Shown here one piece after another: positions 5,962 through 22,789 of a DNA stretch of 29,396 nt. Position 1 is the first letter of the stretch. Each line of letters opens with the position of its first letter. This DNA is from Candidatus Tenderia sp. Its GTDB lineage: Bacteria; Pseudomonadota; Gammaproteobacteria; Tenderiales; Tenderiaceae. Below the pieces are notes generated by a model that saw nothing but the letters and a program-made list of their open reading frames with translations, ran no database searches and was not told the DNA's origin. The position numbers and the translations under genes were made by a program. Location: the NCBI GenBank assembly GCA_031416075.1, contig JANOSY010000019.1, forward strand, positions 1 through 29,396, given 5' to 3'.

Positions 5962-7809
5962 ATGACTAAACATGCAACACAGATAGAGTCAGTTAAGGCT
6001 ACTGAAGTTAATACCCAGGCAGACTTGCTGATCCGTTATTTACTGCAAGTAGGGGTGGATTACATTTTTGGTGTGCCGGGGGGGGCAATAGAGCCTTTGT
6101 ATGATGCGATTGGTCGCAATCTGCGCCGTTCGTTTGACCCCGAATCTTCCGAATCAGCCGAGACCAGCTTACTGCCCGTTCGCAGGCGTAACCGCCCACA
6201 GCAGATCCAGTCAGTAGTCGCCCGCCATGAGTCGGGTGCTGCTTTTATGGCAGATGGTTATGCCCGTGAAACCGGTAAAATCGGGGTCTGTTGCGCAACC
6301 ACCGGGCCAGGTGCAACTAACCTGCTTACCGGTGTTGCCGCCGCGTATGCCGACCATATACCGATGTTGGTGATTACCGGGCAAACGGCGCTGTCCAATT
6401 TTGGCCGGGGCGGTTTTCAGGAGTCCTCCAGTGATGCCATTGATATAGTAGGCATGTTTGAACACTGTACCCGCTACAACAGCCAGGTTTCACACCCCGA
6501 TCAACTGGAAGGCAAGCTCTATAAAGCGCTGTTACACGCCTTCAGATTGCCCAGAGGGCCGGTGCATTTGAGTATCCCTATGGATGTTTTCAAAGCGTCC
6601 TGCGCAAGAGGCACTGATTTGTACCCGATTGGGCAGCTGTTCCGGCGCTCAAAGACGGTGAGTGCAGAGTCCTATCAGGCACTGCTGAGCAAGGTTAATC
6701 AGGATAAAAAGCGGGTGCTGTTCATTGGCAGTGGCTGTAAGGATGCGATGGATGCGCTGATCGCCTTTGCTGAACATACCAATACCCCCATCGTAACAAC
6801 CCCGTCGGGCAAGGGGTTGATCAATAACTATCATCCGCTTTATCGTGGGGTGTTTGGTTTTGCTGGCCATGAAAGTGCACACAGAACCCTGCAGGATAAA
6901 GGGCTGGAGTTGATCATGGCTGTTGGTACCTCTTTGGGGGAGATGTCAACGGGCGGTTGGGATACGGCGATCCTGAACAGCAGATTGGTACACCTGTCGG
7001 CAACAGAAGAGGATTTTGACTACTCGCCAATGGCCTGTTTGCATGTATTGGGTGACCTGCAAACACTCTTTAACGGATTGCTCAAAGATCTGCCAGCCGT
7101 TACCAAAAAAGTAGCCATCGTTGCCAAGAGTGTTGCTCAGGCAGGTAATAGTTTGCCAACGGGGTTAAGTTTTCTGAGGGAAGAGGCGTTATCTTCAGAC
7201 GCTGTGCCGTTAAAACCACAACGGGTCATGCAAGAGTTAATGCGGCAGTTGCCTGACGATACCCGTTTTATTGTGGATGCGGGCAATGTCCTTGCTTGGG
7301 CAACCCATTATTTGATGTTGAATAGTGCTAATTTACACCGCACCTCCTTTGGCTTTGGTGCCATGGGTTGGGCGATAGGGGCGGCTGTTGGAACCGCGTT
7401 GGGATCGGGTAACAAACCGGTTGTCTGTATTACCGGGGATGGCAGCTATCTGATGAGCGGTCAGGAGATCAGCGTGGCGGTGGCTGAGCATCTACCAGTA
7501 CTGTTTATTGTGCTGAATGATCAGGCGTTGGGCATGGTTAAACATGGTCAACGCATGACCGGTGCTGAGTCGATAGGTTATACATTGCCAGTGGTGGATT
7601 TTGCACAAATAGCCCGCGCACAGGGGGCCAAGGCGTATACCATACGCACGGTTGAAGATTTTGAGCAGTTAGAGTGGACCGAGTTGTTGGTGGCTGCAGG
7701 CCCAACACTGCTGGATATTCAGATAGATCCGGAAGAGGTACCACCGATGAATGCCAGGGTTAAAACCTTGCGTAAGACAGGGGGTGGTTCTGATATCTGG
7801 ATGCCGTAA
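5962..7809 (+). CDS. thiamine-diphosphate-dependent enzyme (acetolactate synthase-like fold; function unknown)
   Basis: FGVPGG, RHE catalytic Glu, ADGYAR, TTGPGATN, FGAMGW and the GDGS...LND ThDP motif. No RFDDR motif and no adjacent regulatory subunit. Confidence 0.9.
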   Translation: MTKHATQIESVKATEVNTQADLLIRYLLQVGVDYIFGVPGGAIEPLYDAIGRNLRRSFDPESSESAETSLLPVRRRNRPQQIQSVVARHESGAAFMADGYARETGKIGVCCATTGPGATNLLTGVAAAYADHIPMLVITGQTALSNFGRGGFQESSSDAIDIVGMFEHCTRYNSQVSHPDQLEGKLYKALLHAFRLPRGPVHLSIPMDVFKASCARGTDLYPIGQLFRRSKTVSAESYQALLSKVNQDKKRVLFIGSGCKDAMDALIAFAEHTNTPIVTTPSGKGLINNYHPLYRGVFGFAGHESAHRTLQDKGLELIMAVGTSLGEMSTGGWDTAILNSRLVHLSATEEDFDYSPMACLHVLGDLQTLFNGLLKDLPAVTKKVAIVAKSVAQAGNSLPTGLSFLREEALSSDAVPLKPQRVMQELMRQLPDDTRFIVDAGNVLAWATHYLMLNSANLHRTSFGFGAMGWAIGAAVGTALGSGNKPVVCITGDGSYLMSGQEISVAVAEHLPVLFIVLNDQALGMVKHGQRMTGAESIGYTLPVVDFAQIARAQGAKAYTIRTVEDFEQLEWTELLVAAGPTLLDIQIDPEEVPPMNARVKTLRKTGGGSDIWMP

Positions 7810-8000: not shown

Positions 8001-10181
8001 GTGTTTAAACACAAGCAAAAAATGTTGGTTGTTCTGTGTAGCTTGGTGAGCGCGCAGCCTCAGGCCCAGATGGTGGTGGCACCGGACGATGATCTGTTGC
8101 AGCTCTATGGCAGCGAGGAGATGATCAGCATTGCCACCGGTACGCAGAAACCGATCCACCTGGCCCCTGCTGTTGCCAGTATTGTCACTGCTGCGGATAT
8201 CAAGGCGATGGGGGTGACCAGTCTGGATGAGGCGCTGGAGCTGATTCCTGGCTTGCATGTGTCCGTTTCAAATATTAATCGTCTTAATTCTGTGTATTCA
8301 ATTCGAGGAATTCATACGGGCAATAATGCTCAGGTATTGCTGACTATTAACGGTATTCCCTTGAAAGATACTTATACGGGTTCGCGACTGAACACTTTTC
8401 GCCTGCCAGCGGCGAATATATCCCGTATCGAGGTGATTCGTGGCCCTGGTTCTGCTGTGCATGGGGCTGATGCCTTTGCCGGTGTGATCAATGTTGTGAC
8501 CAAAGATGCAAAAGAGCTTAAGGGTGTTGTTGCGGGCGGGCGAATCGGATCGTTTGACTCCCAGGAGAGCTGGGTTCAATACGGTGGTCGTGCCGCTGAT
8601 TGGAATGTTGGTTTCAGTATGGAACATGCCATCAGTGATGGTGATCAAGCCAGAAGGGTAGACAGTGATGCGGCAACGGCGCTGGGCACATCTTTTGCGC
8701 CCGCTGCCCCCTTGCAGTCACGGTATAACATTCTCAATACCCGTATTGGTATAGCCAATGATGATTGGGATATCAGTCTCTGGAGCTGGATGCAACGGGA
8801 TGGTGGTACTGGTCCGGGCATAGCGCAGGCGATCGATCCGGTCGGAGGGGCTGAGATTGACTATTTTCAGTTGGATGTGAATTTTCGCTTCCCGGCTGAG
8901 TTGAACGGTTGGGCGATGGGTTCGCGGTTAAACATTCAGTATGAAACTGAGAAAAATGGGTATCTGATATTACCGCCAGGCTCAGTTCTGCCGGTGGGGG
9001 ATGATGGCAATATTGGCACCACACCTAATAGTGGCTGTCCGGTGGTGACAGGGTTGGGGAAGGCTTGTTTAGTGAGTTTTGTTGATGGTCTTTACGGCAG
9101 CCCGGGAGGAAGAGCTAATAACAGCAGCGCTGAATTGAATGGTCTTTATGATAAGCAGCGCAACCACTTGGTACGCCTTAGCGTTGGCTTTAGTCAGCAG
9201 CGTCTTTATGTATCAGAAACAAAAAACTTTGGCCCTGGCACACCTGCAGCACAAGTGGGAGAGGTGGCGGCTGGTTCTGGTGGCATCTGGGTTATTCCGG
9301 GTGTTTTAACCGACGTGACGGGGACAGCGGATGTGTTTATTGCTGATCAGATACGGGATGTCTGGTATCTTGCATTTCAGGATGAGTGGCAATTTGCGCC
9401 TGACTGGGAGCTGACCGGAGGGGTGCGTTATGACCATTACACTGAGTTTGGATCAACGGTGAATCCACGTTTGGCGCTGGTATGGGCGATGGATTACAAC
9501 CTGACCAGCAAACTGTTGCTGGGGTCGGCGTTTCGTGCCCCCTCCTTTGGTGAAGAGTTTGCCAAAAACAACCCCGTTGCCTTGGGCAATTCACAGTTGC
9601 GCCCCGAGACCATTAATACCGCAGAGATTGCGTTTGACTATCGCCCCAACTTTGATCTGCAGGAGATGTTTAATCTTTTCTACTACGAGGCGAAAGATCT
9701 GATTGATTATGGCACTACAACTAGCGGTGCCCAGGCCCAAAATCTGAATAATCAAAAGGGTTACGGTGTGGAGATGGAGTCAAAATGGAAGCCACTCGAC
9801 AGCTTAACGTTGGGCGCTGCGTTTGCCTGGCAACATTCGGAAGATATGCGGACCGGCGCACCGATTGCCGATGCACCAGGGCGGCAACTGTCGCTCTCGT
9901 TATTGTGGAAGGTACAGCCTGCCTGGTCGGTATATGGGAGTGCCAACTGGGTGGCGGATCGTAAGCGGGCAACCAATGACAGCCGTCCGCAGATTGATGA
10001 CTATACAGTTGTCAATGTAACCCTGCGCCGACGTCTGGGCCAGCAGTGGGAGCTGGCGGCATCATTGCGGAATCTCCTGGATGCGGATGCCCGTGAACCA
10101 AGCAGTGGTACCATCCCGAAGGATTTCCCCCTGGAGGGGCGTAGTCTCTATGCCGAGGTCCGTTATAACCTGACCAACTGA
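8001..10181 (+). CDS. TonB-dependent outer-membrane receptor
   Basis: Signal peptide; plug motifs ASIVTAADI, IRG and ISRIEVIRGPGSAVHGADAFAGVINVVTK; barrel motifs GVRYDHY, NPRLAL, AFRAPS, LRPE and NLLD...GRSLY. Confidence 0.93.
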   Translation: MFKHKQKMLVVLCSLVSAQPQAQMVVAPDDDLLQLYGSEEMISIATGTQKPIHLAPAVASIVTAADIKAMGVTSLDEALELIPGLHVSVSNINRLNSVYSIRGIHTGNNAQVLLTINGIPLKDTYTGSRLNTFRLPAANISRIEVIRGPGSAVHGADAFAGVINVVTKDAKELKGVVAGGRIGSFDSQESWVQYGGRAADWNVGFSMEHAISDGDQARRVDSDAATALGTSFAPAAPLQSRYNILNTRIGIANDDWDISLWSWMQRDGGTGPGIAQAIDPVGGAEIDYFQLDVNFRFPAELNGWAMGSRLNIQYETEKNGYLILPPGSVLPVGDDGNIGTTPNSGCPVVTGLGKACLVSFVDGLYGSPGGRANNSSAELNGLYDKQRNHLVRLSVGFSQQRLYVSETKNFGPGTPAAQVGEVAAGSGGIWVIPGVLTDVTGTADVFIADQIRDVWYLAFQDEWQFAPDWELTGGVRYDHYTEFGSTVNPRLALVWAMDYNLTSKLLLGSAFRAPSFGEEFAKNNPVALGNSQLRPETINTAEIAFDYRPNFDLQEMFNLFYYEAKDLIDYGTTTSGAQAQNLNNQKGYGVEMESKWKPLDSLTLGAAFAWQHSEDMRTGAPIADAPGRQLSLSLLWKVQPAWSVYGSANWVADRKRATNDSRPQIDDYTVVNVTLRRRLGQQWELAASLRNLLDADAREPSSGTIPKDFPLEGRSLYAEVRYNLTN

Positions 10182-10235
10182 TCTGTTGGCCAGGTATCAG
10201 CCTCTTGTGTCACAACATCGCCGTACATAAAGTGG

Positions 10236-10267
10236 TCACCATACCCGGTTATATTAGGGTATGGTGA
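10236..10267. repeat. perfect 11-bp inverted repeat upstream of the citrate-synthase-like pair
   Basis: TCACCATACCC-N10-GGGTATGGTGA; no long T tract follows. Confidence 0.8.
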
Positions 10268-10303
10268 TGTTCTGTTATGTCTGGTGTATGGAGGTGGATA
10301 GTC

Positions 10304-11116
10304 ATGGAGAGAAAAAGTGAGGTGCGGCGCAACGATCTGTTTGTAGAGCGGACCGCCACCAACATCTGGCAGGAGGTTGCAAGCCCCGATAATCCATATC
10401 TAACCGAGAGCGCCCGCTGTCACGGTTATGAGTTGATGGAGCTGGTTAAAAAACGGAGTTTTGTGGATGTTTTTTATCTAATGTTTCGTGGTGAGTTACC
10501 AGATGCCAATGAGGCGGTATTGTTGGAGCAGTTGATGATCGGGTTGATCAACCCCGGTCCTCGCCACCCTGCTGTACGGGCAGCGATGAACGCGGGTGTT
10601 GGCAGCAGCAGTGTGGAACATATTTTACCCATTGCCTTGACGATTTATGGTGGTGAACATCTTGGCGCGGCAGAGGTAGCGCCAGCGATGAGGTTTTTAA
10701 GAAAACATCGTAATCAAGATCCGCAGCTGTTAGTCCGCAAACTGTTTGAGGAGTGTGTGCCGCCCAGTGAGGGTGATTGGCACATCGTGCCGGGTTTTGG
10801 TAGCCGGTTTGGTGGTGTAGATGGGGTTGCGAAAAAAATTGCAGACCATTTGGATAGTCTGCCCGGCAATCACGAAACCTTAACGTGGGGGTGCAGATTT
10901 GCAGCTGCCCTGAACGGGTACTCGCAGGGGTGGTTGGCCCCGGCCATGGCGGCGGCGGTTTTTACCGATCTTGGGTTTAGCCCCCGTGCCGGTGCCGGGC
11001 TGTTTCAGCTGCTGGGGGCACCGGGACTGCTGGCCCATGGGGTGGAGCTGGCCAGCAAACCGATTACCGCCATGCCGTTTTTGAAGGATGAGAACTATGT
11101 CATCCAATATGAATAA
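10304..11116 (+). CDS. citrate synthase/citryl-CoA lyase-fold protein A (divergent)
   Basis: HGYELMELV..RSFVDVFYLMFRGELP, GGEHLGAA, VPGFG and DLGF...G.GLF match the citryl-CoA lyase-like fold. Start at ATG 10304 behind GGAGG; the ORF track starts at 10277. Confidence 0.78.
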   Translation: MERKSEVRRNDLFVERTATNIWQEVASPDNPYLTESARCHGYELMELVKKRSFVDVFYLMFRGELPDANEAVLLEQLMIGLINPGPRHPAVRAAMNAGVGSSSVEHILPIALTIYGGEHLGAAEVAPAMRFLRKHRNQDPQLLVRKLFEECVPPSEGDWHIVPGFGSRFGGVDGVAKKIADHLDSLPGNHETLTWGCRFAAALNGYSQGWLAPAMAAAVFTDLGFSPRAGAGLFQLLGAPGLLAHGVELASKPITAMPFLKDENYVIQYE

Positions 11117-11924
11117 CAACCCGTTCCAGTTTTGGGATAAACACCGTGGCACTATACGGAGCAAAAAAGGGGGCTGGGTGGTGGGTAAAGGGGTGTTCAG
11201 TCATGGCTACTCCATGATGGATGAACTGGTGGGCAAGGTTTCATATATGCAGGTTGTGATGCTTAATGCGACAGGCCGTCTGCCGCAGCGGCAGATTGCT
11301 GATTGGTGTGAGGCGGCATTTATTTGTTTGAGCTGGCCCGATCCACGTATCTGGTGCAATCAGATTGGTGCTTTGGGTGGCGCAGCCCGCACATCAGTGG
11401 TGGCGGCGACAACAGCGGGTATTTTGGCGGCAGATGCAAATTCATATGGAATAAAACCGTTGTTACTGGGTGTGCAGTTTATTCAGGACGCGATGCTGGA
11501 TTATAAAAATGGTGTGAGTGTTGATGAGATAGTAAAAAAGGAGTGCGCCAAACATCGTGGCAAACCTCATATCATGGGCTATGCACGGCCGATTGCCAAA
11601 GGGGATGAGCGGGTTGTAGCTATGAAGCGGGTTCAAAATGAGTTGGGGCTCTCTGATGGCGAGCATTTACGGCTTGCGTATCAAATTGAAGCGGTGTTGT
11701 TACGGGATTTTGATGAGAGCATGAATATCAACGGTTATGCGTCCGCCTTTCTCTCTGATCGGGGTCATACTGCTGGTGAGGTCAATCGAATATGCGCCGT
11801 AGTGGTGAGTAGCGGCGTCACCGCCTGTTACATCGATACACGGGACCGCCCGCCCGAGGCGTTTTTACCGTTACGTTGTGACGATATCGAATATACGGGC
11901 AAGCCAGCGCGGGCTGTGCCTTAA
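11109..11924 (+). CDS. citrate synthase/citryl-CoA lyase-fold protein B (divergent)
   Basis: HGYSMMDELVGKVSYMQ...GRLP, SWPDPRIWCN, IMGYARP...DER, MNIN and C-terminal IEYTG..R.VP. Probable start ATG 11109 overlaps the stop of gene A by 8 nt. Confidence 0.75.
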   Translation: MNNNPFQFWDKHRGTIRSKKGGWVVGKGVFSHGYSMMDELVGKVSYMQVVMLNATGRLPQRQIADWCEAAFICLSWPDPRIWCNQIGALGGAARTSVVAATTAGILAADANSYGIKPLLLGVQFIQDAMLDYKNGVSVDEIVKKECAKHRGKPHIMGYARPIAKGDERVVAMKRVQNELGLSDGEHLRLAYQIEAVLLRDFDESMNINGYASAFLSDRGHTAGEVNRICAVVVSSGVTACYIDTRDRPPEAFLPLRCDDIEYTGKPARAVP

Positions 11925-11945: not shown

Positions 11946-14435
11946 TTATGTGGTCAGGAGTGTTGCGATGCTCACGGGTTTGCTGATGGCATAACCTTGC
12001 AGGAAATCGACACCAATAATTTTCAGCTCGTTCATGATGGCCTCATTTTCAACATATTCGGCGATGGTTTTCAGGCCAAAGACATGGCCGATGTCGTTGA
12101 TTGATTTGACCATGGCGTGGTCGATGGGGTCCTCCATGATGCCTTTGATAAACATGCCATCAATTTTGAGGTAATCAACGGGCAGGTTTTTGAGGTAGGC
12201 ATAGGATGACATGCCACTGCCAAAGTCATCGAGTGCAAATGAGCAGCCCAGTTTTTTGATGTTAACAATGAACTGTATCGCCTCTTGAAGATTGTGGATG
12301 GCGGCTGTTTCGGTGATTTCAAAACAGAATTTTGTCGGTGGCAACTTATATTTTGCGAATGCCTGGCTGATAAAATTGACAAAACTTTGATCACCCAGAG
12401 TGAGACCGGACAGGTTGATAGAGCAGGTCTGCAGCCGGTCTAAACCGGCGGGATTTTGTGCAAACCAACGTAGGGTTGCATCCAGGACCCAGCGATCTAT
12501 TTTGGTGGCGATGTTGTAACGCTCCGCAGCGGGCAGAAACAGTGCCGGGGAGATCCAGTTGCCATCGGAGTCTTTCATTCGCAGCAATATTTCAATGTGG
12601 CTTGGGTAGGGGTATTCCCCTTTAAGCTCCAGAATGGTCTGGTAAAAGAGTGCAAAGCCATCATGTTCAAAGGCGTGGTTGATCTTTGAGACAACGTGCA
12701 TTTCGCTGCGCCGTTTTATCAGCTCCTGGTCGTCTACATGATAAAGGTGTATACGGCCACGTCCGCGCTCTTTGGCGATGTAGCAGGCGTTGTCAGCCAT
12801 GCTGAGTGCTTCGTTGACACTCAGTGTGTCGCGGGTGATGGGAACGACCCCAACACTGGCACCGACGGCGAAGGTGTTGTTGTCATAGACAAAGCGGTGT
12901 GCCTGAATGGCATCGCAGATCACCTGGGCGATACGAACGGCGGACTCGGCGGAGCACTCTTCGAGCAGCAGTACAAACTCATCGCCCCCAAATCGGGCGA
13001 GGGTGTCGTGATGGCGACGGATTTTGCCAAGGATGATGTTTTTGATCTGGCGCAGTAGCTGGTCGCCGGCAATGTGGCCGCAGGTATCGTTGATGACTTT
13101 GAACTGGTCGAGATCGATATAACAGAGTGCATATTCAACATCCTGATGCTGCTGCTCTTCCAGTACAACACGTAACCGTTCTTCAAAGGTGGTGCGGTTG
13201 GTCAGGCCGGTGAGCAGGTCATGTTTGGATTGGTACTCCAGCCGTTTTTCCAGCTGATCGGTATGGGTGATGTCGCGGAAGACCATGACGGCGCCGATGA
13301 TCTCATTCTGGCGGTTGCGTATGGGGGAGGTGACGTGATCCAGCTTGAGCTGCCGGTTATCGTGGTTGATAAAGGTGAGCTGTTTTGCACCGTAGACAGG
13401 ACGGCTTGATTCAAGACAGCTGGTGGCTGGGTCATTGCTTTCCGTGGCGGTTGAGTCGCTGGTGCCATGCAGTATCTCGTGTACGTGTTTACCGGCGGCA
13501 TCGCTCAGCGTCCAGCCGGAGATCCGTTCTGCGACCGGGTTCATGTACTCAATGGTGCCGCTAAGATCGGTGGTGATGACACCTTCGGCAATGGAGTGCA
13601 GTGTGACTTGCGCCAGCTCTTTTTCGTGGAACAGCGCCTCCTGGTTTTGGGCAAATTCGCGGTTGCTGACCAGAAAATCTTCACGTTGTACGGCGATTTC
13701 ACAGACACGTCGTAACTGTTCGGTACGAAAAGGTTTGGAGATAAAGTCAACCGCGCCATCGAGGATCAGTTCGCCAGCGCGTTCGGGTGAGGAGCGGGCG
13801 GTCATCATGACAACCGACTGTGCCGGATTAACTTTTATGATCTCCTGCAGTACTTCGCGGCCAGACATCTCTGGCAGCATGACATCGAGCAGCACAAGGT
13901 CATGGCGTCGTGCCAGCCACGCCTCCAATCCCGCTTTACCAGTGATGGTCACTTCGATGTCAAAGCGGTGGCTGAGCACACGTTTGATCAGTTCCACCGT
14001 ATCTAAATAGTCTTCAACCACCAGCAGGGAGCCCCTGGGGGTACCGCTGCTGTTGCTGGAGCGGAATATCTCATCGAGCACAGCAGGTAGAGTTGCCTGC
14101 GCCTGGAATGGGAGAAAGCGGTTAACTTCAAAGGCGTGACAGGTGGCGGCGGCGATGCGCTCGCTATGGATGCTGGAGACGATGATGATGGGGGTGTTGG
14201 CCGATATGGTTAATGCACCAGAACGAACCAGCCGGGCAAAGCGCCAGCCATCCAGTGTGCCCAGATCGACATCGCAGATAATGATGTCAATCTGTTTGAA
14301 ACTCAGAATATCGAAGGCCTCTTTGGTGGTGGTGGCTTCGGATAGCTCGGTGTAACCTGCGGCGTGCAACGTTGCCATCAGCGTGGCGCTCTGATCAACG
14401 TTGGGGGTAAATATTAATATCTGTTTGCTGAACAA
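11946..14435 (-). CDS. REC-REC-PAS-GGDEF-EAL c-di-GMP enzyme
   Basis: Atypical REC1 and canonical REC2 (VED, LLDVMLP, MTA, KPF); PAS domain (IAEGVITTD..MNP.AE); RHHD I-site and GGDEF; EAL motifs EIL, INLS, EITE, DDFGSG, KID, EYVE and QGY. Confidence 0.95.
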   Translation of the reverse strand: MFSKQILIFTPNVDQSATLMATLHAAGYTELSEATTTKEAFDILSFKQIDIIICDVDLGTLDGWRFARLVRSGALTISANTPIIIVSSIHSERIAAATCHAFEVNRFLPFQAQATLPAVLDEIFRSSNSSGTPRGSLLVVEDYLDTVELIKRVLSHRFDIEVTITGKAGLEAWLARRHDLVLLDVMLPEMSGREVLQEIIKVNPAQSVVMMTARSSPERAGELILDGAVDFISKPFRTEQLRRVCEIAVQREDFLVSNREFAQNQEALFHEKELAQVTLHSIAEGVITTDLSGTIEYMNPVAERISGWTLSDAAGKHVHEILHGTSDSTATESNDPATSCLESSRPVYGAKQLTFINHDNRQLKLDHVTSPIRNRQNEIIGAVMVFRDITHTDQLEKRLEYQSKHDLLTGLTNRTTFEERLRVVLEEQQHQDVEYALCYIDLDQFKVINDTCGHIAGDQLLRQIKNIILGKIRRHHDTLARFGGDEFVLLLEECSAESAVRIAQVICDAIQAHRFVYDNNTFAVGASVGVVPITRDTLSVNEALSMADNACYIAKERGRGRIHLYHVDDQELIKRRSEMHVVSKINHAFEHDGFALFYQTILELKGEYPYPSHIEILLRMKDSDGNWISPALFLPAAERYNIATKIDRWVLDATLRWFAQNPAGLDRLQTCSINLSGLTLGDQSFVNFISQAFAKYKLPPTKFCFEITETAAIHNLQEAIQFIVNIKKLGCSFALDDFGSGMSSYAYLKNLPVDYLKIDGMFIKGIMEDPIDHAMVKSINDIGHVFGLKTIAEYVENEAIMNELKIIGVDFLQGYAISKPVSIATLLTT

Positions 14436-14506: not shown

Positions 14507-16084
14507 CTACCTATCGGCACTTCCCCGGCTTTCATTAAGAAATATTGGGATTGATACGGTAAACGTTGACCCTTGTTCAGGGGCGCTGGTGACACGTATG
14601 GTCCCTCCCATCAGTGTGCAGAACTGATGGGTGATTGCTAATCCCAGTCCAGTCCCCTCAAAGCGGCGAGTGATGCTGCTTTCAACCTGATAAAAGGGGT
14701 CAAAGATATGTTCGATCTGGCTTTCTGGTATGCCAATGCCACTATCCTTGATGATCAGTTGCAGCATTTTGGCACTCTGCGTCACGGTGAGCTGTATGAT
14801 GCCATGTTGGGTGAACTTGGTGGCATTGCTCAGCAAGTTGAGCAGGATCTGTCGTAACTTTGCCTCATCGATTACCAACAGCTCCGGTTGTAGCTGGAGT
14901 GTTGTTTCAAGTTGGTTGTGATTGTTTTTAAGCAGCGGTGTAATAGTCTCTATTACGCCACTGACAAGCAGGCGGATATTGGCGGGTGCCGGTTGCAGTG
15001 TCATTTGCCCCGACTCCAGTTTGGACATGTCAAGGATGGAGTTGATCATGGCCAATAGGTGGGTAGCATTGGCAGTAATGGTCTCCAGGTCGCGGCGGGT
15101 TTCACCCATTTCGGTGGGTAGATCCTCAAGGATCAGGTCGCTGTAACCGAGAATCGATTGTAACGGAGTGCGGAGCTCGTGGCTGACGCGGGAGAGAAAG
15201 TCAGATTTATTCTGGTTGGCTTGCACCGCTAAATCGCGGGTGTAGACCAGCTCCTGAGTCCGTTGGTTAACCTCATATTCGAGCATTTCATTGTGCTGCC
15301 GCAAACGGGTGTCGCGTTCGGCCAGGGCCTCCATCATCTTGTTGAAGGCGCGGCCAATGTTATGTACCTCGGTGGGTCCTTTCAAGGCTGCATAGCTTTG
15401 TGTATCACCATTTTCGGCCCGCTCCATCACCTTTGCCAACGCTGACAGCGGTTGGGTGAGACGTGAAAAGCTGCGCTGAACTATGAGCAGCAGGATAATG
15501 GCGATCAGGATGGTGATACCGAGATTGTTGGCAAAGGTGGCGGTAACGGTCTGTCCGAGTTTGGTTTTGCTTTTAATAACTACGACACTGCCCAATAGCT
15601 CAGGAAGGGTGTTATCGGGTTGTGCCAGTGAAACAGCGCTGTCGTCGGACTCAATCTGACTGTCACTGTAGACCGGCGCGATAAATATCCACTCAGCACC
15701 ATTCTCCTCTGCCAGTATTGCGGTTTTTTGTTCACCGGAAAGCTTGGGCAATTTGGTCAGGCTGAACCCTTTTTTGAGTAGCACGTTGCCGCTGTTGGTG
15801 AGCAGCGTGACTTGGCTGATGGAGGGAAACCCCAATGCAGCACTTAATGCCTCTTCAGCATTGTCGCCGCTGCCGTAGAGCAGTGATAATACCGACCGCT
15901 GGGCGACACTGTTGGTTACCTGGAGTCCATCTTCTACCATCTGATCATACACGTTGGAGGAGGTGACCCAGGCGGTGGTCAATGAGGTGCCAATCGCCAG
16001 CGCAAAAATACCGAGGGTGAAGGTAGTGGTGAGCTGTCTGCGAAAGCTGCTGTGTGATCTCTTGTTTATATTCATGGGGTGCAT
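14507..16084 (-). CDS. membrane-bound HAMP histidine kinase
   Basis: Two TM segments around a periplasmic domain; HAMP (PLSAL..E...IGRAFN.M); H-box SHELRTPL, N-box NLLSNA.KFT, G1 DSGIGI, F-box and G2 GTGLGL. Confidence 0.95.
   Translation of the reverse strand: MHPMNINKRSHSSFRRQLTTTFTLGIFALAIGTSLTTAWVTSSNVYDQMVEDGLQVTNSVAQRSVLSLLYGSGDNAEEALSAALGFPSISQVTLLTNSGNVLLKKGFSLTKLPKLSGEQKTAILAEENGAEWIFIAPVYSDSQIESDDSAVSLAQPDNTLPELLGSVVVIKSKTKLGQTVTATFANNLGITILIAIILLLIVQRSFSRLTQPLSALAKVMERAENGDTQSYAALKGPTEVHNIGRAFNKMMEALAERDTRLRQHNEMLEYEVNQRTQELVYTRDLAVQANQNKSDFLSRVSHELRTPLQSILGYSDLILEDLPTEMGETRRDLETITANATHLLAMINSILDMSKLESGQMTLQPAPANIRLLVSGVIETITPLLKNNHNQLETTLQLQPELLVIDEAKLRQILLNLLSNATKFTQHGIIQLTVTQSAKMLQLIIKDSGIGIPESQIEHIFDPFYQVESSITRRFEGTGLGLAITHQFCTLMGGTIRVTSAPEQGSTFTVSIPIFLNESRGSADR
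14511..14537 (-). promoter_or_regulatory. putative internal sigma-28 promoter for the GGDEF-EAL gene
   Basis: Minus strand reads TAAT-N15-GCCGATAG within the last codons of the kinase gene, about 75 nt upstream of the start at 14435. Confidence 0.55.
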
Positions 16085-17176: not shown

Positions 17177-19918
17177 CTATTGAGGCACGCTGAAGAGCGT
17201 AGGGTCATCTCTTTTTAGTTCTAACAGCTTTTTAAACTCATCTGTACTCATTTTTGGTTTGGAGAATGTTGGCATTACCACGTTGACTACATTGTTAAGC
17301 TGCTGCTCCGTACCATCCTGATAGCGAATATAGAGATGGTAGCTGCCAGGTACCACTGTTGCCGGCAGTGTAAAACGGCCGTCAGCCGCCTCTTTAAGGC
17401 GGATAGACGGCAGCAGCCGTAGTGCGGTGATGGTGGTGGCACCGCTCAGGTAGAGTACCCCTTCATGGAGCCGCAGCCGATTAACCCTGTTTAACATCGG
17501 ATAATGTTCGATAATCTTGAGCGTTGTTGGTTCAAGTCGCATCACCTCGTACTCACCGCTGACGATTAGCGTCTTTCCTGCATGGGCAATGGCGTGAATG
17601 GCGCGGTTCAGTGTCCGTTCTGATTGTAGTGTGATCTCGGTTTTACTCACCTCAAACTGGAGCAGCTGGGTACCGTGGCCAACGTAGAGGGTATCGCCCA
17701 CCGCCAGCAGTGGCCCGGTCTCACCAGTGAGTGGGTGGTATCCCAGCGCTGCCACTTTGCCAGTGGCATCCACACCATAACGGTGCAGGCCATCGTGGCT
17801 GGCGACAATCAGACCATGGCTGGTCAGGGCGATGGCACTGGCCTTGAGGTTGATGCGCGCCAGCTGGCGCGGCAGTTTGGGGCTGCTGATGTCATAGAGC
17901 AGCACCCCTTGCAGTTCATCGAGCAGCCAGAGGTGGTTCTGATCGACGATGACATCGACAACACGGCCATCGGTCGGCGTGGTACTGAGCCAGCGCGCCT
18001 CGAAGGGGTTGCCGATGTCGGCAATCGCCAGACCGCCATCCCCCATCGCCAGATAGGCGCGGCCATTTGCCAGGGCGATACGTCGGGCATCACCGGGGAA
18101 GTTAACACCGGTGATCCAGGTGGGGTTGAGCGGGTTGTTGATATCGAAGATCTGCAAGCCGTTGCTGCCCTGGGCCACAAAGGCGTAATTATCCTGAGTG
18201 GTAATGTCATTCACACGACCACGCTCGTGGTAGTCCCCCACTACATGCACGGCGGCAGGATCGCTGACATCGAGCACCGCAATGCCGCCCCACCAATCCA
18301 TGGCAAAGAGGTGGTTACCCTCCACCTTCAGCCCCCAGGTGGCACCACGGGTATCAAAACTGCTGACGACCTTGGGTACCTTGAGATTGCTGATATCGAG
18401 GATATGAATCCCCGCCAGCCAGCTGGCGACATAGAGTTTGTCGCCGATCAGGTCGAGGCCGCGGCTGTTGCCGGGCAGGGCGGTGTGGCTGAGCACCTTG
18501 GGTGCAGCCGGGTCAGCGATATCGAGTACGTAGACGCCGTCATCAAAAAAGGCCACAAAGGCGATGTTGTCACGGATCATCACCTCCTCCGCCGCTGTGC
18601 CGGGGGTGAACTGGCCGAGTAGCTGCGGCGCTTTGGCATCTTTCACATCAAAGATCAGCAGGCCGGTATCGTCATCGGCGACGTAGAGCCGCTCGCCCTG
18701 AATCTCCAGTGACCACGCCTTGCCGGGGGTATCGACTTCGCTGAGTTGTTCTGGCTTGGCAGGATCACTGACGTCGATGATCTGAAAGCCGCCGCGATGG
18801 CTGGCAAGGTAGAGCAGATCGCCCGCCAGCTTCGGCGTGTAACCGAGGCCGCCGGTCTGAATGTGCGAGATCAGCTTTGGCGCACGCGGATTTTTTACAT
18901 CAATGATCTGCAGCCCATGGTCATCGTCCGGCACATAGGCGACGTTGTCGCGCACCACCATCCCCTTAGGCGAGCCGGGAGTATGAAAGCTGGAGAGCAG
19001 CAGCGGCAGGTGGGGGTTGCTGATGTCGTAGAGGTGGATGCCGGAGAACCAGTCGGCCACATAGGCGATGTGGTTGGCGATGAAGACGCGGCGCTCACCG
19101 CCAAAGTTGACCCCTTGGCCAAAGTTCAGCCCCTCGTTGCTGATTTGTGGCATGGGGGCGCTGAAGTCGATCACATCGATGGTGTTGTCGGTACGCAGAT
19201 AGACGTTCTGGTCAAACCAGGCCAGGTCACGCACCGCCGTCGCGCTGCGCCAGGCGTTGATCACCGTCGGCTCCGCCGGGTTGTTGATGTCGATGAGGTA
19301 GACAATGCCGCCGTCGCTCAGCGCCAGCACCTTGTCATCAGCGGCGACCACACGCACGATGCGCCCCAGCTTCTGGTGGCTGCCGCGCCAGCGTGGATAT
19401 TTGGCGTCACTGATGTCGAGCACCGTGACGCCATTTCTGTCGTTGGCGAGGATGGCCAGGGAATCGACCACCACCAGGTCGTGCAGTGGCGCGGGGGCGC
19501 GGTAGCGACCGGTCACCTTGGCCTGTTTCTGTTGGGCCGAATAGAGCACCAGCTCGTTACCCTGTTCGATGCGAAGCCCCTGGCCATTTTGCTGCACTGT
19601 GGGGGGTGAGGTGTTGAAGTGTGCCGCCTCCACGCCCTCCGGCCCCATCTGTTGTAACAGGTGCAGGCCATCAGGTTGGTTGATCAGGGTGTAGTCGCCA
19701 TGGCTACCGGGGGTCAGTGGCAGCTGTTGCAGCAGATGGGGGCCACCGGGCAGCAGGCTGATCTGCTGGATTGTTCTGGCATCTACCCCGTGTAACTGGA
19801 GCGTGGCCTCCTTACCAACGGTGACGGTGGTTGGTGTGATCTCAATCGCGGCCATGGCTGATGGAGTCAGGCTGGAGGCGAGCAGGAGGGCGACTAATAA
19901 GGGTTGCTTATAAGACAA
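17177..19918 (-). CDS. secreted LVIVD-repeat (beta-propeller-like) protein
   Basis: Signal peptide (..SAMA-A); about 13 recognisable ~42-aa repeats of the form G..LYVA....GL.I.DIS.P..P. Confidence 0.88.
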   Translation of the reverse strand: MSYKQPLLVALLLASSLTPSAMAAIEITPTTVTVGKEATLQLHGVDARTIQQISLLPGGPHLLQQLPLTPGSHGDYTLINQPDGLHLLQQMGPEGVEAAHFNTSPPTVQQNGQGLRIEQGNELVLYSAQQKQAKVTGRYRAPAPLHDLVVVDSLAILANDRNGVTVLDISDAKYPRWRGSHQKLGRIVRVVAADDKVLALSDGGIVYLIDINNPAEPTVINAWRSATAVRDLAWFDQNVYLRTDNTIDVIDFSAPMPQISNEGLNFGQGVNFGGERRVFIANHIAYVADWFSGIHLYDISNPHLPLLLSSFHTPGSPKGMVVRDNVAYVPDDDHGLQIIDVKNPRAPKLISHIQTGGLGYTPKLAGDLLYLASHRGGFQIIDVSDPAKPEQLSEVDTPGKAWSLEIQGERLYVADDDTGLLIFDVKDAKAPQLLGQFTPGTAAEEVMIRDNIAFVAFFDDGVYVLDIADPAAPKVLSHTALPGNSRGLDLIGDKLYVASWLAGIHILDISNLKVPKVVSSFDTRGATWGLKVEGNHLFAMDWWGGIAVLDVSDPAAVHVVGDYHERGRVNDITTQDNYAFVAQGSNGLQIFDINNPLNPTWITGVNFPGDARRIALANGRAYLAMGDGGLAIADIGNPFEARWLSTTPTDGRVVDVIVDQNHLWLLDELQGVLLYDISSPKLPRQLARINLKASAIALTSHGLIVASHDGLHRYGVDATGKVAALGYHPLTGETGPLLAVGDTLYVGHGTQLLQFEVSKTEITLQSERTLNRAIHAIAHAGKTLIVSGEYEVMRLEPTTLKIIEHYPMLNRVNRLRLHEGVLYLSGATTITALRLLPSIRLKEAADGRFTLPATVVPGSYHLYIRYQDGTEQQLNNVVNVVMPTFSKPKMSTDEFKKLLELKRDDPTLFSVPQ

Positions 19919-21297: not shown

Positions 21298-21915
21298 TTA
21301 AAACAGCGCGGCGTAACGGCGTGCCGCGCTCTGGATATCCGGTTGGCCAAACACCCCCTGTACCACGGCCAGCATATCAGCACCGGCGGCGATTAGATCA
21401 GCGCCATTCTCAGGTGTGATGCCGCCAATGGCGACCACCGGGAGGTTGAGTTCGTGGCGGCTGCGTAACAGTAGCTCAGGTGTGGCGTGTACAGCAGCAG
21501 GTTTGGTGGCCGATGGAAAAAAGGCACCAAAGGCGATGTAGTCAGCCCCGTCTCTTGCCGCGGCCTCCGCCAGTGCCCACTCATTGTAACAAGAGAGACC
21601 AATAATGCCGTCCCTCAGTTGCTGACGTGTCTCTTTTACAGTGCCATCACCTCGGCCAAGGTGGATACCGTCAGCACCAATGGCGGCGGCCAGCGCCACG
21701 TCATCATTGATAATAAAGGTTACACCGTGTTGGCGGCAGAGTGTCAGTAATGCCTCGGCCTCCTGTCGGCGACGTGAGGGCTGGTCACTTTTGTCGCGGT
21801 ATTGAATAATCCGGGCACCACCGTGAATCGCCTGTTCTGCGGCGACCAGCAGCTGGCCATGGGGGCTGAGCGTGCTATCGGTAATGGCATAGAGTCCGCG
21901 TAAACGGCTGCTCAC
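21298..21915 (-). CDS. thiE: thiamine-phosphate synthase
   Basis: Motifs LYAITD, QYRDK, IINDD, GIHLG, S.TKP and VAIGGIT; 4-nt overlap with thiD. Confidence 0.95.
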
Positions 21916-22724
21916 CCCTGTTCATCCTCATCGCCCCGTGCCCAGAAGAGCCGATTGGGGATGGTCTGCCCCATGCCAATGCGGTAGCCATGTTTGAGCG
22001 TCTCCCACGCATATTGCTGGGCTTCGTGAATGGCGGCAAAGGGATCGAGTCCCTGCGCCAGCAGGCCGGCAATGGCCGAGGCCAGTGTACAGCCAGAGCC
22101 GTGGTAGCTGCCGGGTAGTCGCTCCCAACTAAAGGTTTCAAGGTTGCGGTGCTCGGCGTAGAGGCGGTTCTCCACCATCGGGCTGTTTTCATGGGCACCG
22201 GTAATCAGCACAAATTCACACCCCATGTCGAGCAGCGCCTGGGCACAGGCATCCAGATTGTCAGCGGTGGAGGCAAAACGGCGCGCCTCGATACTGTTGG
22301 GGGTGAGCACGGTGGTTTGAGGCAACAGTAGTGAGATGATGGCATCAATAATCTCGTCACCAGCCAGTTCACCACCACCGCCAGCGGTGATGATGGGGTC
22401 CAGCACCACCGGGATAGCGGGGTAGTCCATCAGCAGGGTGTGAATCGCCTCGACATTCGCGACGCTGCCGATCATGCCGATCTTGAAGGCGGCCACGGGC
22501 ATATCTTCAAGCACGGCGCGGGCCTGTTCGATCAACACCGTGGCGTCGACGGCCTCAAAGCGGAAGACTTTCTGGGTATCTTGTATGGTCAGTGCGGTAA
22601 TCACTGGCGCGGCGTGGCAGCCCATGCTGAGCAGCGCCTCAATATCGGCCTGAATACCGGCGCCACCGGTAGGGTCGTTGCCGGAGAGTGTCATCACTAC
22701 CGGTACGGTGTGCAGTTGTGTCAC
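21912..22724 (-). CDS. thiD: hydroxymethylpyrimidine/phosphomethylpyrimidine kinase
   Basis: Motifs G.DPTGGAGIQAD, KIGM, VVLDP, TPN..EA and HGSGCTLASAIA. Start uncertain (GTG 22724 or ATG 22769). Confidence 0.93.
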   Translation of the reverse strand: MTQLHTVPVVMTLSGNDPTGGAGIQADIEALLSMGCHAAPVITALTIQDTQKVFRFEAVDATVLIEQARAVLEDMPVAAFKIGMIGSVANVEAIHTLLMDYPAIPVVLDPIITAGGGGELAGDEIIDAIISLLLPQTTVLTPNSIEARRFASTADNLDACAQALLDMGCEFVLITGAHENSPMVENRLYAEHRNLETFSWERLPGSYHGSGCTLASAIAGLLAQGLDPFAAIHEAQQYAWETLKHGYRIGMGQTIPNRLFWARGDEDEQG

Positions 22725-22789
22725 TTGGGTTCCCTGTCTGTGTTGCTGTGAAGCAGAGGATTTTATCATTGTGAGGTGAGTTGGCGGAG

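Follow-up and report, generated by a model that had tools for sequence, protein, structure and literature searches.

An overlapping gene pair for predicted citrate-synthase-fold proteins that lack the catalytic triad accompanies an acetolactate synthase-like ThDP enzyme in Candidatus Tenderia

We analysed a 29,396-nucleotide (nt) stretch of DNA, hereafter called the window, from the forward strand of contig JANOSY010000019.1 of Candidatus Tenderia sp. (assembly GCA_031416075.1). On its plus strand, two overlapping genes encode protein A (10304..11116, 270 amino acids (aa)) and protein B (11097..11924, 275 aa). Both are chains with the predicted fold of citryl-coenzyme A (CoA) lyase (CCL) and citrate synthase; A has lost the residues for citrate/oxaloacetate binding and for catalysis, and B appears to keep an invariant arginine-lined pocket together with a C-terminal arm. 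Upstream of the pair lies the gene of its dedicated partner, a thiamine diphosphate (ThDP)-dependent enzyme that resembles acetolactate synthase (ALS) (5962..7809, plus strand, 615 aa). An earlier reading of the locus, made from the sequence only, had proposed an overlapping same-strand pair of citrate-synthase-fold reading frames at 10304..11924, and both frames, their overlap and their fold were confirmed here.

The extent of the overlap had to be revised. In the reading frame of gene A an alternative start exists at 10277, and the ATG at 10304 is directly preceded by GGAGGTG. Gene B, whose stop lies at 11924, offers three in-frame ATGs, at 11088, 11097 and 11109. Because GAAGGA is found 8 nt 5' of the ATG at 11097 and the B homologues in databases are 275 aa long, spanning 100% of the 11097 form, the A/B overlap is most likely 20 nt (11097-11116). 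The overlap of 8 nt given previously requires the start at 11109, which has no comparable site in front of it. An ATG at the matching aligned position, 20 nt inside the end of A, was also present in 13 of 22 A-B pairs from other organisms, a comparison in which starts were chosen by alignment to the window and which is thus biased toward the 20-nt result.

When searched with phmmer against the sequences of the PDB, both proteins matched the CCL chain 6hxp_A (E 1.8e-16 for A and 6.9e-7 for B, or 9.4e-14 with a B profile). The AlphaFold2 models reached a predicted local distance difference test (pLDDT) score of 91.0 for A and 87.1 for B. With Foldseek, 6hxp was the top match for each of them (E 7.9e-12 and a template modelling (TM) score of 0.71 for A; E 3.0e-10 and TM 0.74 for B), followed for both models by the CCL modules of ACLY and then by citrate and methylcitrate synthases. 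As judged from these models, A and B both have the CCL/citrate synthase fold, in agreement with the sequence-only reading. They are moreover homologous to each other (hhalign probability 97%, 27% identity), and with 270 and 275 residues they are short compared to the ~370-430 residues of a full two-domain citrate synthase.

No curated Pfam or NCBIfam family covers either protein. Pfam PF00285 scored 23.4 bits on A, over residues 37-72 only and under its 27-bit gathering cut-off, and did not match B in the Pfam scan. The best scores with the NCBIfam CCL models (PRK06224; EC 4.1.3.34) were 78.5 bits for A (cut-off 212) and 55.5 bits for B (cut-off 245). Database names for the relatives are 'citrate synthase' or 'hypothetical', and one homologue, P0168, falls in generic 'putative citrate synthase' clusters in a protein atlas look-up.

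The His/His/Asp motifs and the roles of the individual residues in CCL and citrate synthases are known from citrate-synthase enzymology, and we located the corresponding positions by aligning A and B, with HMMER and hhalign, with 6hxp and with the GltA-type synthase of the same genome. In A, GGEHLGAA aligned to GSAHGGAL and PGFGSRF to PGYGHRY, and nothing like NVD was found. In B, SYG stands at the first His, GYAR (as GYARP) replaces G(Y/F)GH, GDER replaces DPR and NIN replaces NVD. The replacements that had been listed beforehand (GFGS and no NVD in A; SYG, GYAR, DER and NIN in B) therefore agree exactly with the alignments.

We then examined how these columns behave among 79 relatives of A and 58 relatives of B, and found the His/His/Asp triad intact in neither protein. 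The first His is present in the window's protein A, as previously stated, but it is not invariant, since the relatives carry H in 66 cases, Y in 7, F in 3, N in 2 and Q in 1; it is thus not conserved enough to be essential. At the second-His position of A, S occurs in 55 of 79 relatives and His is not among the six commonest residues listed, and the positions that align with NVD vary. A has also lost the oxaloacetate-holding arginines (at the DPR and GR..G positions), and it stops short of the C-terminal arm present in CCL and in B. In B, Y117 and the arginine that takes the second-His position, R164, were found in 58/58 relatives; the Asp column contains N (51), G (5), C (1) and A (1). The DPR arginine of B is kept (R172, 58/58), as is its C-terminal EYTG...R arm (R272, 58/58).

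Other positions are strictly conserved in both families. The invariant residues of A are R9, E24, N30, G41, Y42, G85, R87, P109, G117, W195, A217, A218, D222, Q235, P240, E248 and Y265; those of B comprise SWPDPRIWCN, Y117, G-Y-A-R164-P, G-D-E-R172, E207, N210, D221, C244, D263 and R272. Common to A and B is a new P-x-P-R loop (NPGPRHPA in A, WPDPRIWC in B), which replaces the substrate-binding His of the synthases. In the wider B-like clade, sampled by 90 full-length representatives, R164 and R172 were kept in 90/90, D170 in 89/90, N210 in 87/90 and R84 in 84/90. The first-His column of this clade contains Y (65) or F (23), and the column of the Asp base contains A, G or S in 76/90, Asp not being among the eight commonest residues listed. 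The retention of this arginine signature in the 90 representatives indicates that the B-like clade has exchanged the acid/base residues for what is probably an arginine-rich, carboxylate-friendly site. By alignment, B retains a putative cationic pocket lined by R84, R164 and R172, with R272 added from the arm, and this pocket may still bind an organic acid.

A and B are constantly found together. The full pair lies side by side in 21 of 24 related loci, the other three being cut by contig ends or too short. Adjacency on one strand was observed in 22/22 pairs and in 6/6 further loci, some at ~33% identity, that is, in all 28. In 21 of the 22 pairs the stop of A overlaps the start of B; the overlap is exactly 20 nt long in 13. 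Moreover, five proteins (P0254, P0282, P0292, P0320 and P0401) are A-B fusions in that order, each with its own linker and mutually divergent. Tandem B-B fusions also occur (P0241, P0391 and P0397), in which the first copy looks like the more degenerate one. Because of the constant adjacency, the conserved overlap and the five A-B fusions, A and B are probably two chains of one heteromer, one well kept and one degenerate. Coupled expression and a heterodimer had both been suggested by the sequence-only reading, and both are probable on this indirect evidence from gene arrangement and fusions.

The pair is also well conserved. Against four relatives, the ratio of nonsynonymous to synonymous substitution rates (dN/dS) was 0.07-0.11 for A (three usable values) and 0.09-0.13 for B. 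Mean column identity reached 60% for A and 68% for B, with one Nitrospirota locus among the relatives. At E <= 0.001, 1309 database proteins matched A and 1344 matched B, the best 120 of each showing identities of at least 56% and 64%, respectively. Given the low dN/dS, the high column identity and the many database matches, A and B appear to be under purifying selection and are not decaying relics. A B profile run against 1.84 billion representatives returned 576 B-like clusters (50% identity) at E <= 0.001, 111 of them at E <= 1e-30; a tblastn search of the plasmid collection gave no match for B. Among the carriers, Pseudomaricurvus alkylphenolicus KCTC 32386 (locus L012) is in culture. Some B-like proteins have additional parts, namely a C-terminal SRPBCC/polyketide-cyclase-like domain in P0342 and a further C-terminal domain of ~130 residues in P0315. 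One B homologue (G025:C2:13926-14732, locus L034) contains an in-frame TGA, for which sequencing error, a broken gene or recoding are possible.

Compared with its close relative L001, the window shows a background of 94-100% nt identity, within which gene B (11101-11800) drops to 78-87% and patches of the receptor gene described below (8301-8400 and 9001-9300) to 72-79%. The synonymous divergence (dS) of B is 0.58, against 0.11-0.31 in 12 other genes, and that of ThiD is 0.52. These patches look like a recombination mosaic that is not unique to B. We also considered the cluster as a hypervariable island and rejected this idea as stated, since genes flanking the cluster in L007 likewise show 72-98% identity and the dS of ThiD in L001 matches that of B.

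The strongest result of this analysis is that A/B are strictly linked to one ALS-like ThDP subfamily. The ThDP enzyme of the window scored above the Pfam cut-off for the three TPP_enzyme domains (PF02776, PF00205 and PF02775). Among the 25 NCBIfam families shown, no equivalog cut-off was reached, the best being TIGR00118 (331.4 versus 538.35), and the match to the NCBIfam 'ScyA-related' model (E 4.8e-81) was under that model's cut-off. Among solved chains, BbmA (8x3x, E 2.4e-91) and CsmA (8x3z) come nearest, both taken from the PDB by name only, our literature search having found no paper on either. The ThDP gene adjoins A-B in the window and in 14 of the 24 related loci. Of the remaining loci, five end at a contig edge before the gene could appear and one is too short; in the four genomes without an adjacent gene, a full-length orthologue with 47-48% identity lies on another contig, distinct from a separate paralogue with 29-30% identity. 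In the distant loci the gene was adjacent in 6/6 cases, at ~33% identity.

We further monitored co-occurrence in an even draw of 400 other genomes of the phylum, with thresholds of E <= 1e-20 for the B profile and E <= 1e-100 for the ThDP enzyme; looser thresholds would admit ordinary ALS paralogues to the count. B and the ThDP enzyme occurred in the same 10 genomes and neither was found in the other 390 at these thresholds. In the 10 genomes both genes were on the same contig, within ~2 kb every time. A link to the ThDP enzyme, merely hinted at before, is thus upheld by adjacency, by the off-cluster orthologues and by this co-occurrence.

In loci L004, L005, L006 and L013 the ThDP gene is relocated elsewhere in the genome, L006 keeping a short ThDP-like remnant. 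These four clusters carry a gene for a short-chain dehydrogenase/reductase (SDR), a class II aldolase-SDR fusion and a YfiR-like (DUF4154) gene. From a reading of the sequence, an ArsR-type gene probably lies nearby, and a neighbouring S-adenosylmethionine-dependent methyltransferase looks ArsM-like, Pfam giving generic methyltransferase domains. In the window itself, thiE and thiD, for thiamine phosphate synthase and hydroxymethylpyrimidine phosphate kinase, are situated at 21298-22769, ~10 kb from the ThDP gene.

A reductase is associated with B in several ways. In three fusion proteins, P0398, P0399 (15 member sequences) and P0400 (18), B is joined at its C-terminal end to an SDR, and an SDR gene lies directly 3' of B in L002, L004, L005 and L013.

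The usual company of the trio formed by A, B and the ThDP enzyme consists of one or two TonB-dependent receptors, a PF04392 protein beside a HAMP kinase, and a receiver-PAS-GGDEF-EAL regulator, which in some loci is replaced by a YfiR-like protein. In the window, the TonB-dependent outer-membrane receptor (8001..10181, plus strand, 726 aa) has plug and beta-barrel domains according to Pfam and reached no NCBIfam equivalog cut-off; a receptor adjoins A-B in most related loci. On the minus strand, Pfam identified a response regulator with two receiver domains, PAS, GGDEF and EAL (11946..14435, 829 aa), a HAMP-HisKA-HATPase sensor histidine kinase (14507..16084, 525 aa), a periplasmic-type binding protein of family PF04392 (16095..17039, 314 aa) and an LVIVD-repeat beta-propeller protein (17177..19918, 913 aa). 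A homologue of the GGDEF/EAL regulator stands beside the cluster in 17 loci. The core of the kinase, which recurs in related loci, resembles TorS and LuxQ with scores far under their cut-offs. The binding protein matches TrpX weakly (29 bits versus a cut-off of 390) and recurs beside the cluster, including distant loci at ~33% identity. As for the LVIVD protein, the closest relatives (L001, L007 and L009) were the only ones with it in the cluster, and it is doubtful that it is part of the system.

The spacer between the receptor gene and gene A (10182-10303) is predicted to be strongly structured, with a folding energy of -46.3 kcal/mol (z -3.89, 0/200 shuffles as good). It contains a hairpin on the plus strand (10235..10268) with a perfect 12-bp stem and a 10-nt loop, identical in L001 and partly kept in L007, which may act as an attenuator, bind a protein or stabilise the intercistronic RNA. 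Promoter and terminator scans gave counts inside the range expected from shuffles, and a listing of 20 sequencing runs showed no RNA data set containing the locus. No Rfam family, the thiamine pyrophosphate (TPP) riboswitch included, reached its gathering score anywhere in the window, and there is thus no riboswitch clue to the receptor's ligand. Downstream of the regulator, a molybdate-type ABC transporter (binding protein, permease and TOBE-domain ATPase) was seen in L014, L015, L017, L018 and L019. This may hint at an oxyanion link, but we rejected a molybdate link, because these five Pseudomonadales loci with modABC are effectively one lineage and too little to build on.

Among known systems, the CCL of Hydrogenobacter thermophilus (6HXP) is the best match in both sequence and structure, with a length of 256-268 residues against 270 and 275 here, and B shares its RGELP-type, G-x-G and C-terminal EYTG...R motifs. 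However, this CCL keeps the GSAHGG, GYGHRY and LNVDG residues that are missing from A/B, and it is one gene product, in contrast to the two diverged, always-paired paralogues described here. CCL acts with citryl-CoA synthetase in the reductive tricarboxylic acid (TCA) cycle, whereas A/B travel with a ThDP enzyme. Citrate synthase and 2-methylcitrate synthase (PF00285; GltA, PrpC) have the same fold core and can be matched motif by motif through the genome's synthase, and the N-terminal 'HGY...GELP' of A matches them weakly; in comparison, A/B are ~150 residues shorter, under the Pfam threshold and devoid of the triad. The citrate-synthase-homology (CSH) module of ACLY is the next-best structural match. 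It is fused to an acyl-CoA-synthetase-like part, keeps D1026 and H900, forms a homotetrameric core and has no ThDP partner, unlike A/B. According to the accessible part of PMC10115795, its catalytic role is disputed and it binds CoA. Two further papers proved not relevant to A/B, their accessible parts concerning a CitE-type lyase (PMC3751524) and FrbC-type phosphonate chemistry (PMC8942020).

The neighbouring genes also recall known arrangements. Acetoin/butanediol operons combine ALS, acetolactate decarboxylase (an unrelated Zn enzyme) and a reductase, and contain no receptor or sensor genes; the present cluster would be alike in gene logic only, with a ThDP carboligase, a protein that may act on its acid and an SDR-type reductase. 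LuxP-LuxQ and TorT-TorS are binding-protein-dependent sensor kinases, and the placement of a binding-protein gene beside a HAMP kinase with a TorS/LuxQ-like core is similar, whereas the low scores, the PF04392-type binding protein and the GGDEF/EAL output set the present genes apart. In the literature searched, from which most subscription journals were absent, we found no published description of the pair or of the cluster, and we rate A/B as a variant within a known fold family that has not previously been described there.

Several explanations have to be weighed for A/B. That they are ordinary subunits of a CCL or a citrate synthase might be thought from the name 'citrate synthase' given to their relatives and from the CCL models being their best family matches. 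However, A and B lack the triad and most of the residues that bind substrate, the scores with the CCL models are far under the cut-offs, and three full-length canonical PF00285 genes (open frames of 420-437 residues; E 1e-139 to 1e-127) lie elsewhere in the genome (contigs C80, C24 and C40; L025-L027), so that A/B are not needed as a synthase. Nor did a general Pfam scan of the 21 window open reading frames of at least 150 aa give a match to a succinyl/citryl-CoA-synthetase-type family. For the first three reasons, neither A nor B should be a normal citrate synthase or CCL, as had been anticipated, and to the extent that sequence permits, this explanation is excluded, its probability being close to nil. 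Two independent homodimers with separate roles, sharing nothing more than an operon, are very improbable as well: B-like singletons and B-B tandems do suggest that B-type chains probably self-pair, but A and B were never apart in the 28 pairs, their stop/start overlap and fusions speak for one assembly, and A is without the arm that completes the partner's site in this fold.

The loss of every canonical catalytic residue from both chains would also suit a non-catalytic module of the ThDP enzyme, either a scaffold or a regulatory pair binding an effector or CoA, comparable to the small subunits of acetohydroxy acid synthase (AHAS) or to the ACLY CSH module in the view of one school, with CoA loading/unloading and allostery. 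The strict co-occurrence with a single ThDP subfamily fits such a role, the high conservation of B suits a protein with many contacts, and the ACLY module has been argued to be allosteric and CoA-handling, not catalytic (PMC10115795, accessible part). On the other hand, the B-SDR fusions and SDR adjacency resemble a metabolic chain instead, B-like singletons and B-B tandems exist, and the invariant triple-arginine pocket suits a substrate as well as an effector; we hold a regulatory module to be possible and rather unlikely. Much the same doubt attaches to a Claisen or retro-Claisen enzyme that would condense or cleave an acyl-CoA with the keto or hydroxy acid of the ThDP enzyme, using other catalytic residues (e.g., D82, E171, D221, C87 or C244 of B). 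The sequence-only reading had offered new acyl-CoA chemistry and a ligand-binding role as alternatives, and this explanation corresponds to the former. To our knowledge, every characterised member of the citrate-synthase fold performs acyl-CoA Claisen/retro-Claisen chemistry, and invariant acidic and cysteine residues do lie near the old site of B. CoA-related neighbours, however, occur in just two loci: in L045 the gene after B is of the AMP-binding (acyl-CoA-synthetase) type, and L044 has a MaoC-SDR gene close to the trio. Furthermore, C87 and C244 are not kept in the wider B-like clade (C in 35/90 and 64/90), and both His and the Asp of acetyl-CoA enolisation are replaced by the non-catalytic Y/F, R and A/G/N.

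In our view, A/B most likely form a heteromer that binds carboxylates as a partner of the ThDP carboligase. In its fuller form, to which we give a probability of roughly 45%, this explanation holds that the CCL/citrate-synthase-fold pair has given up the Claisen/retro-Claisen machinery and handles the acid product of the carboligase. The ThDP enzyme would join 2-oxo acids into an alpha-hydroxy-beta-keto acid with a citrate-like tertiary hydroxy-carboxylate centre. A/B, working alongside it in the cytoplasm with A as the more degenerate chain, would hold that acid in the former citrate/oxaloacetate pocket and then process it or pass it on. In citrate synthases the C-terminal arm reaches into the partner's active site. 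The step of A/B could be a decarboxylation or a rearrangement, at the position that acetolactate decarboxylase has in acetoin operons, and the reductase would possibly act thereafter. Since the receptor, the binding protein, the kinase and the cyclic di-GMP (c-di-GMP) regulator usually flank the trio, uptake and sensing are suggested for the product, which may be imported through the outer membrane, either free or complexed with a metal, and detected in the periplasm. From the gene content and the alignments we infer the ligand class, the reaction and this link to receptor and sensor.

Several points weigh against this explanation. The pocket was placed via sequence alignment to CCL and citrate synthase, and the pLDDT is just 65 at residues 161-170 of B, the loop around R164. 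With Y/F at the first-His position and a small residue at the Asp column, B has no obvious acid/base catalyst in the alignment, which fits binding as well as catalysis. The reaction given to A/B draws on the analogy with acetoin operons, and the window's own cluster is without an SDR. Among the related loci compared, the cluster has no conserved exporter or importer of the inner membrane, which leaves the route from a cytoplasmic product to the receptor and sensor unexplained. The A-B fusions are rare, each being found on one or two contigs, and the 10 co-occurring genomes represent 5 genera besides the window's own, so that kin among them are not independent.

Taken together, A/B, the ThDP enzyme, the receptor and the c-di-GMP system point to an undescribed small-molecule pathway. 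More speculatively, and at odds that we consider low, the ThDP enzyme, A and B may make a new alpha-hydroxy-acid-type signal or metal carrier that is recaptured by the receptor and sensed by the binding protein and kinase, with c-di-GMP as output; the citrate-synthase fold would then serve as a specificity or processing subunit in a self-contained locus for making, taking up and sensing a compound, patchily distributed in Pseudomonadota and present in at least one Nitrospirota locus. For the fold family, the finding is a large conserved clade without both His and the Asp, which keeps and adds carboxylate-holding arginines and is tied to one ThDP subfamily. Labels such as 'citrate synthase' would mislead metabolic reconstructions of these organisms, such as those of (reverse) TCA cycles in lithoautotrophs, a group to which several carriers belong. 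Should the trio prove to make a molecule that is secreted and acts back on c-di-GMP, this would represent new signalling or metal-uptake chemistry.

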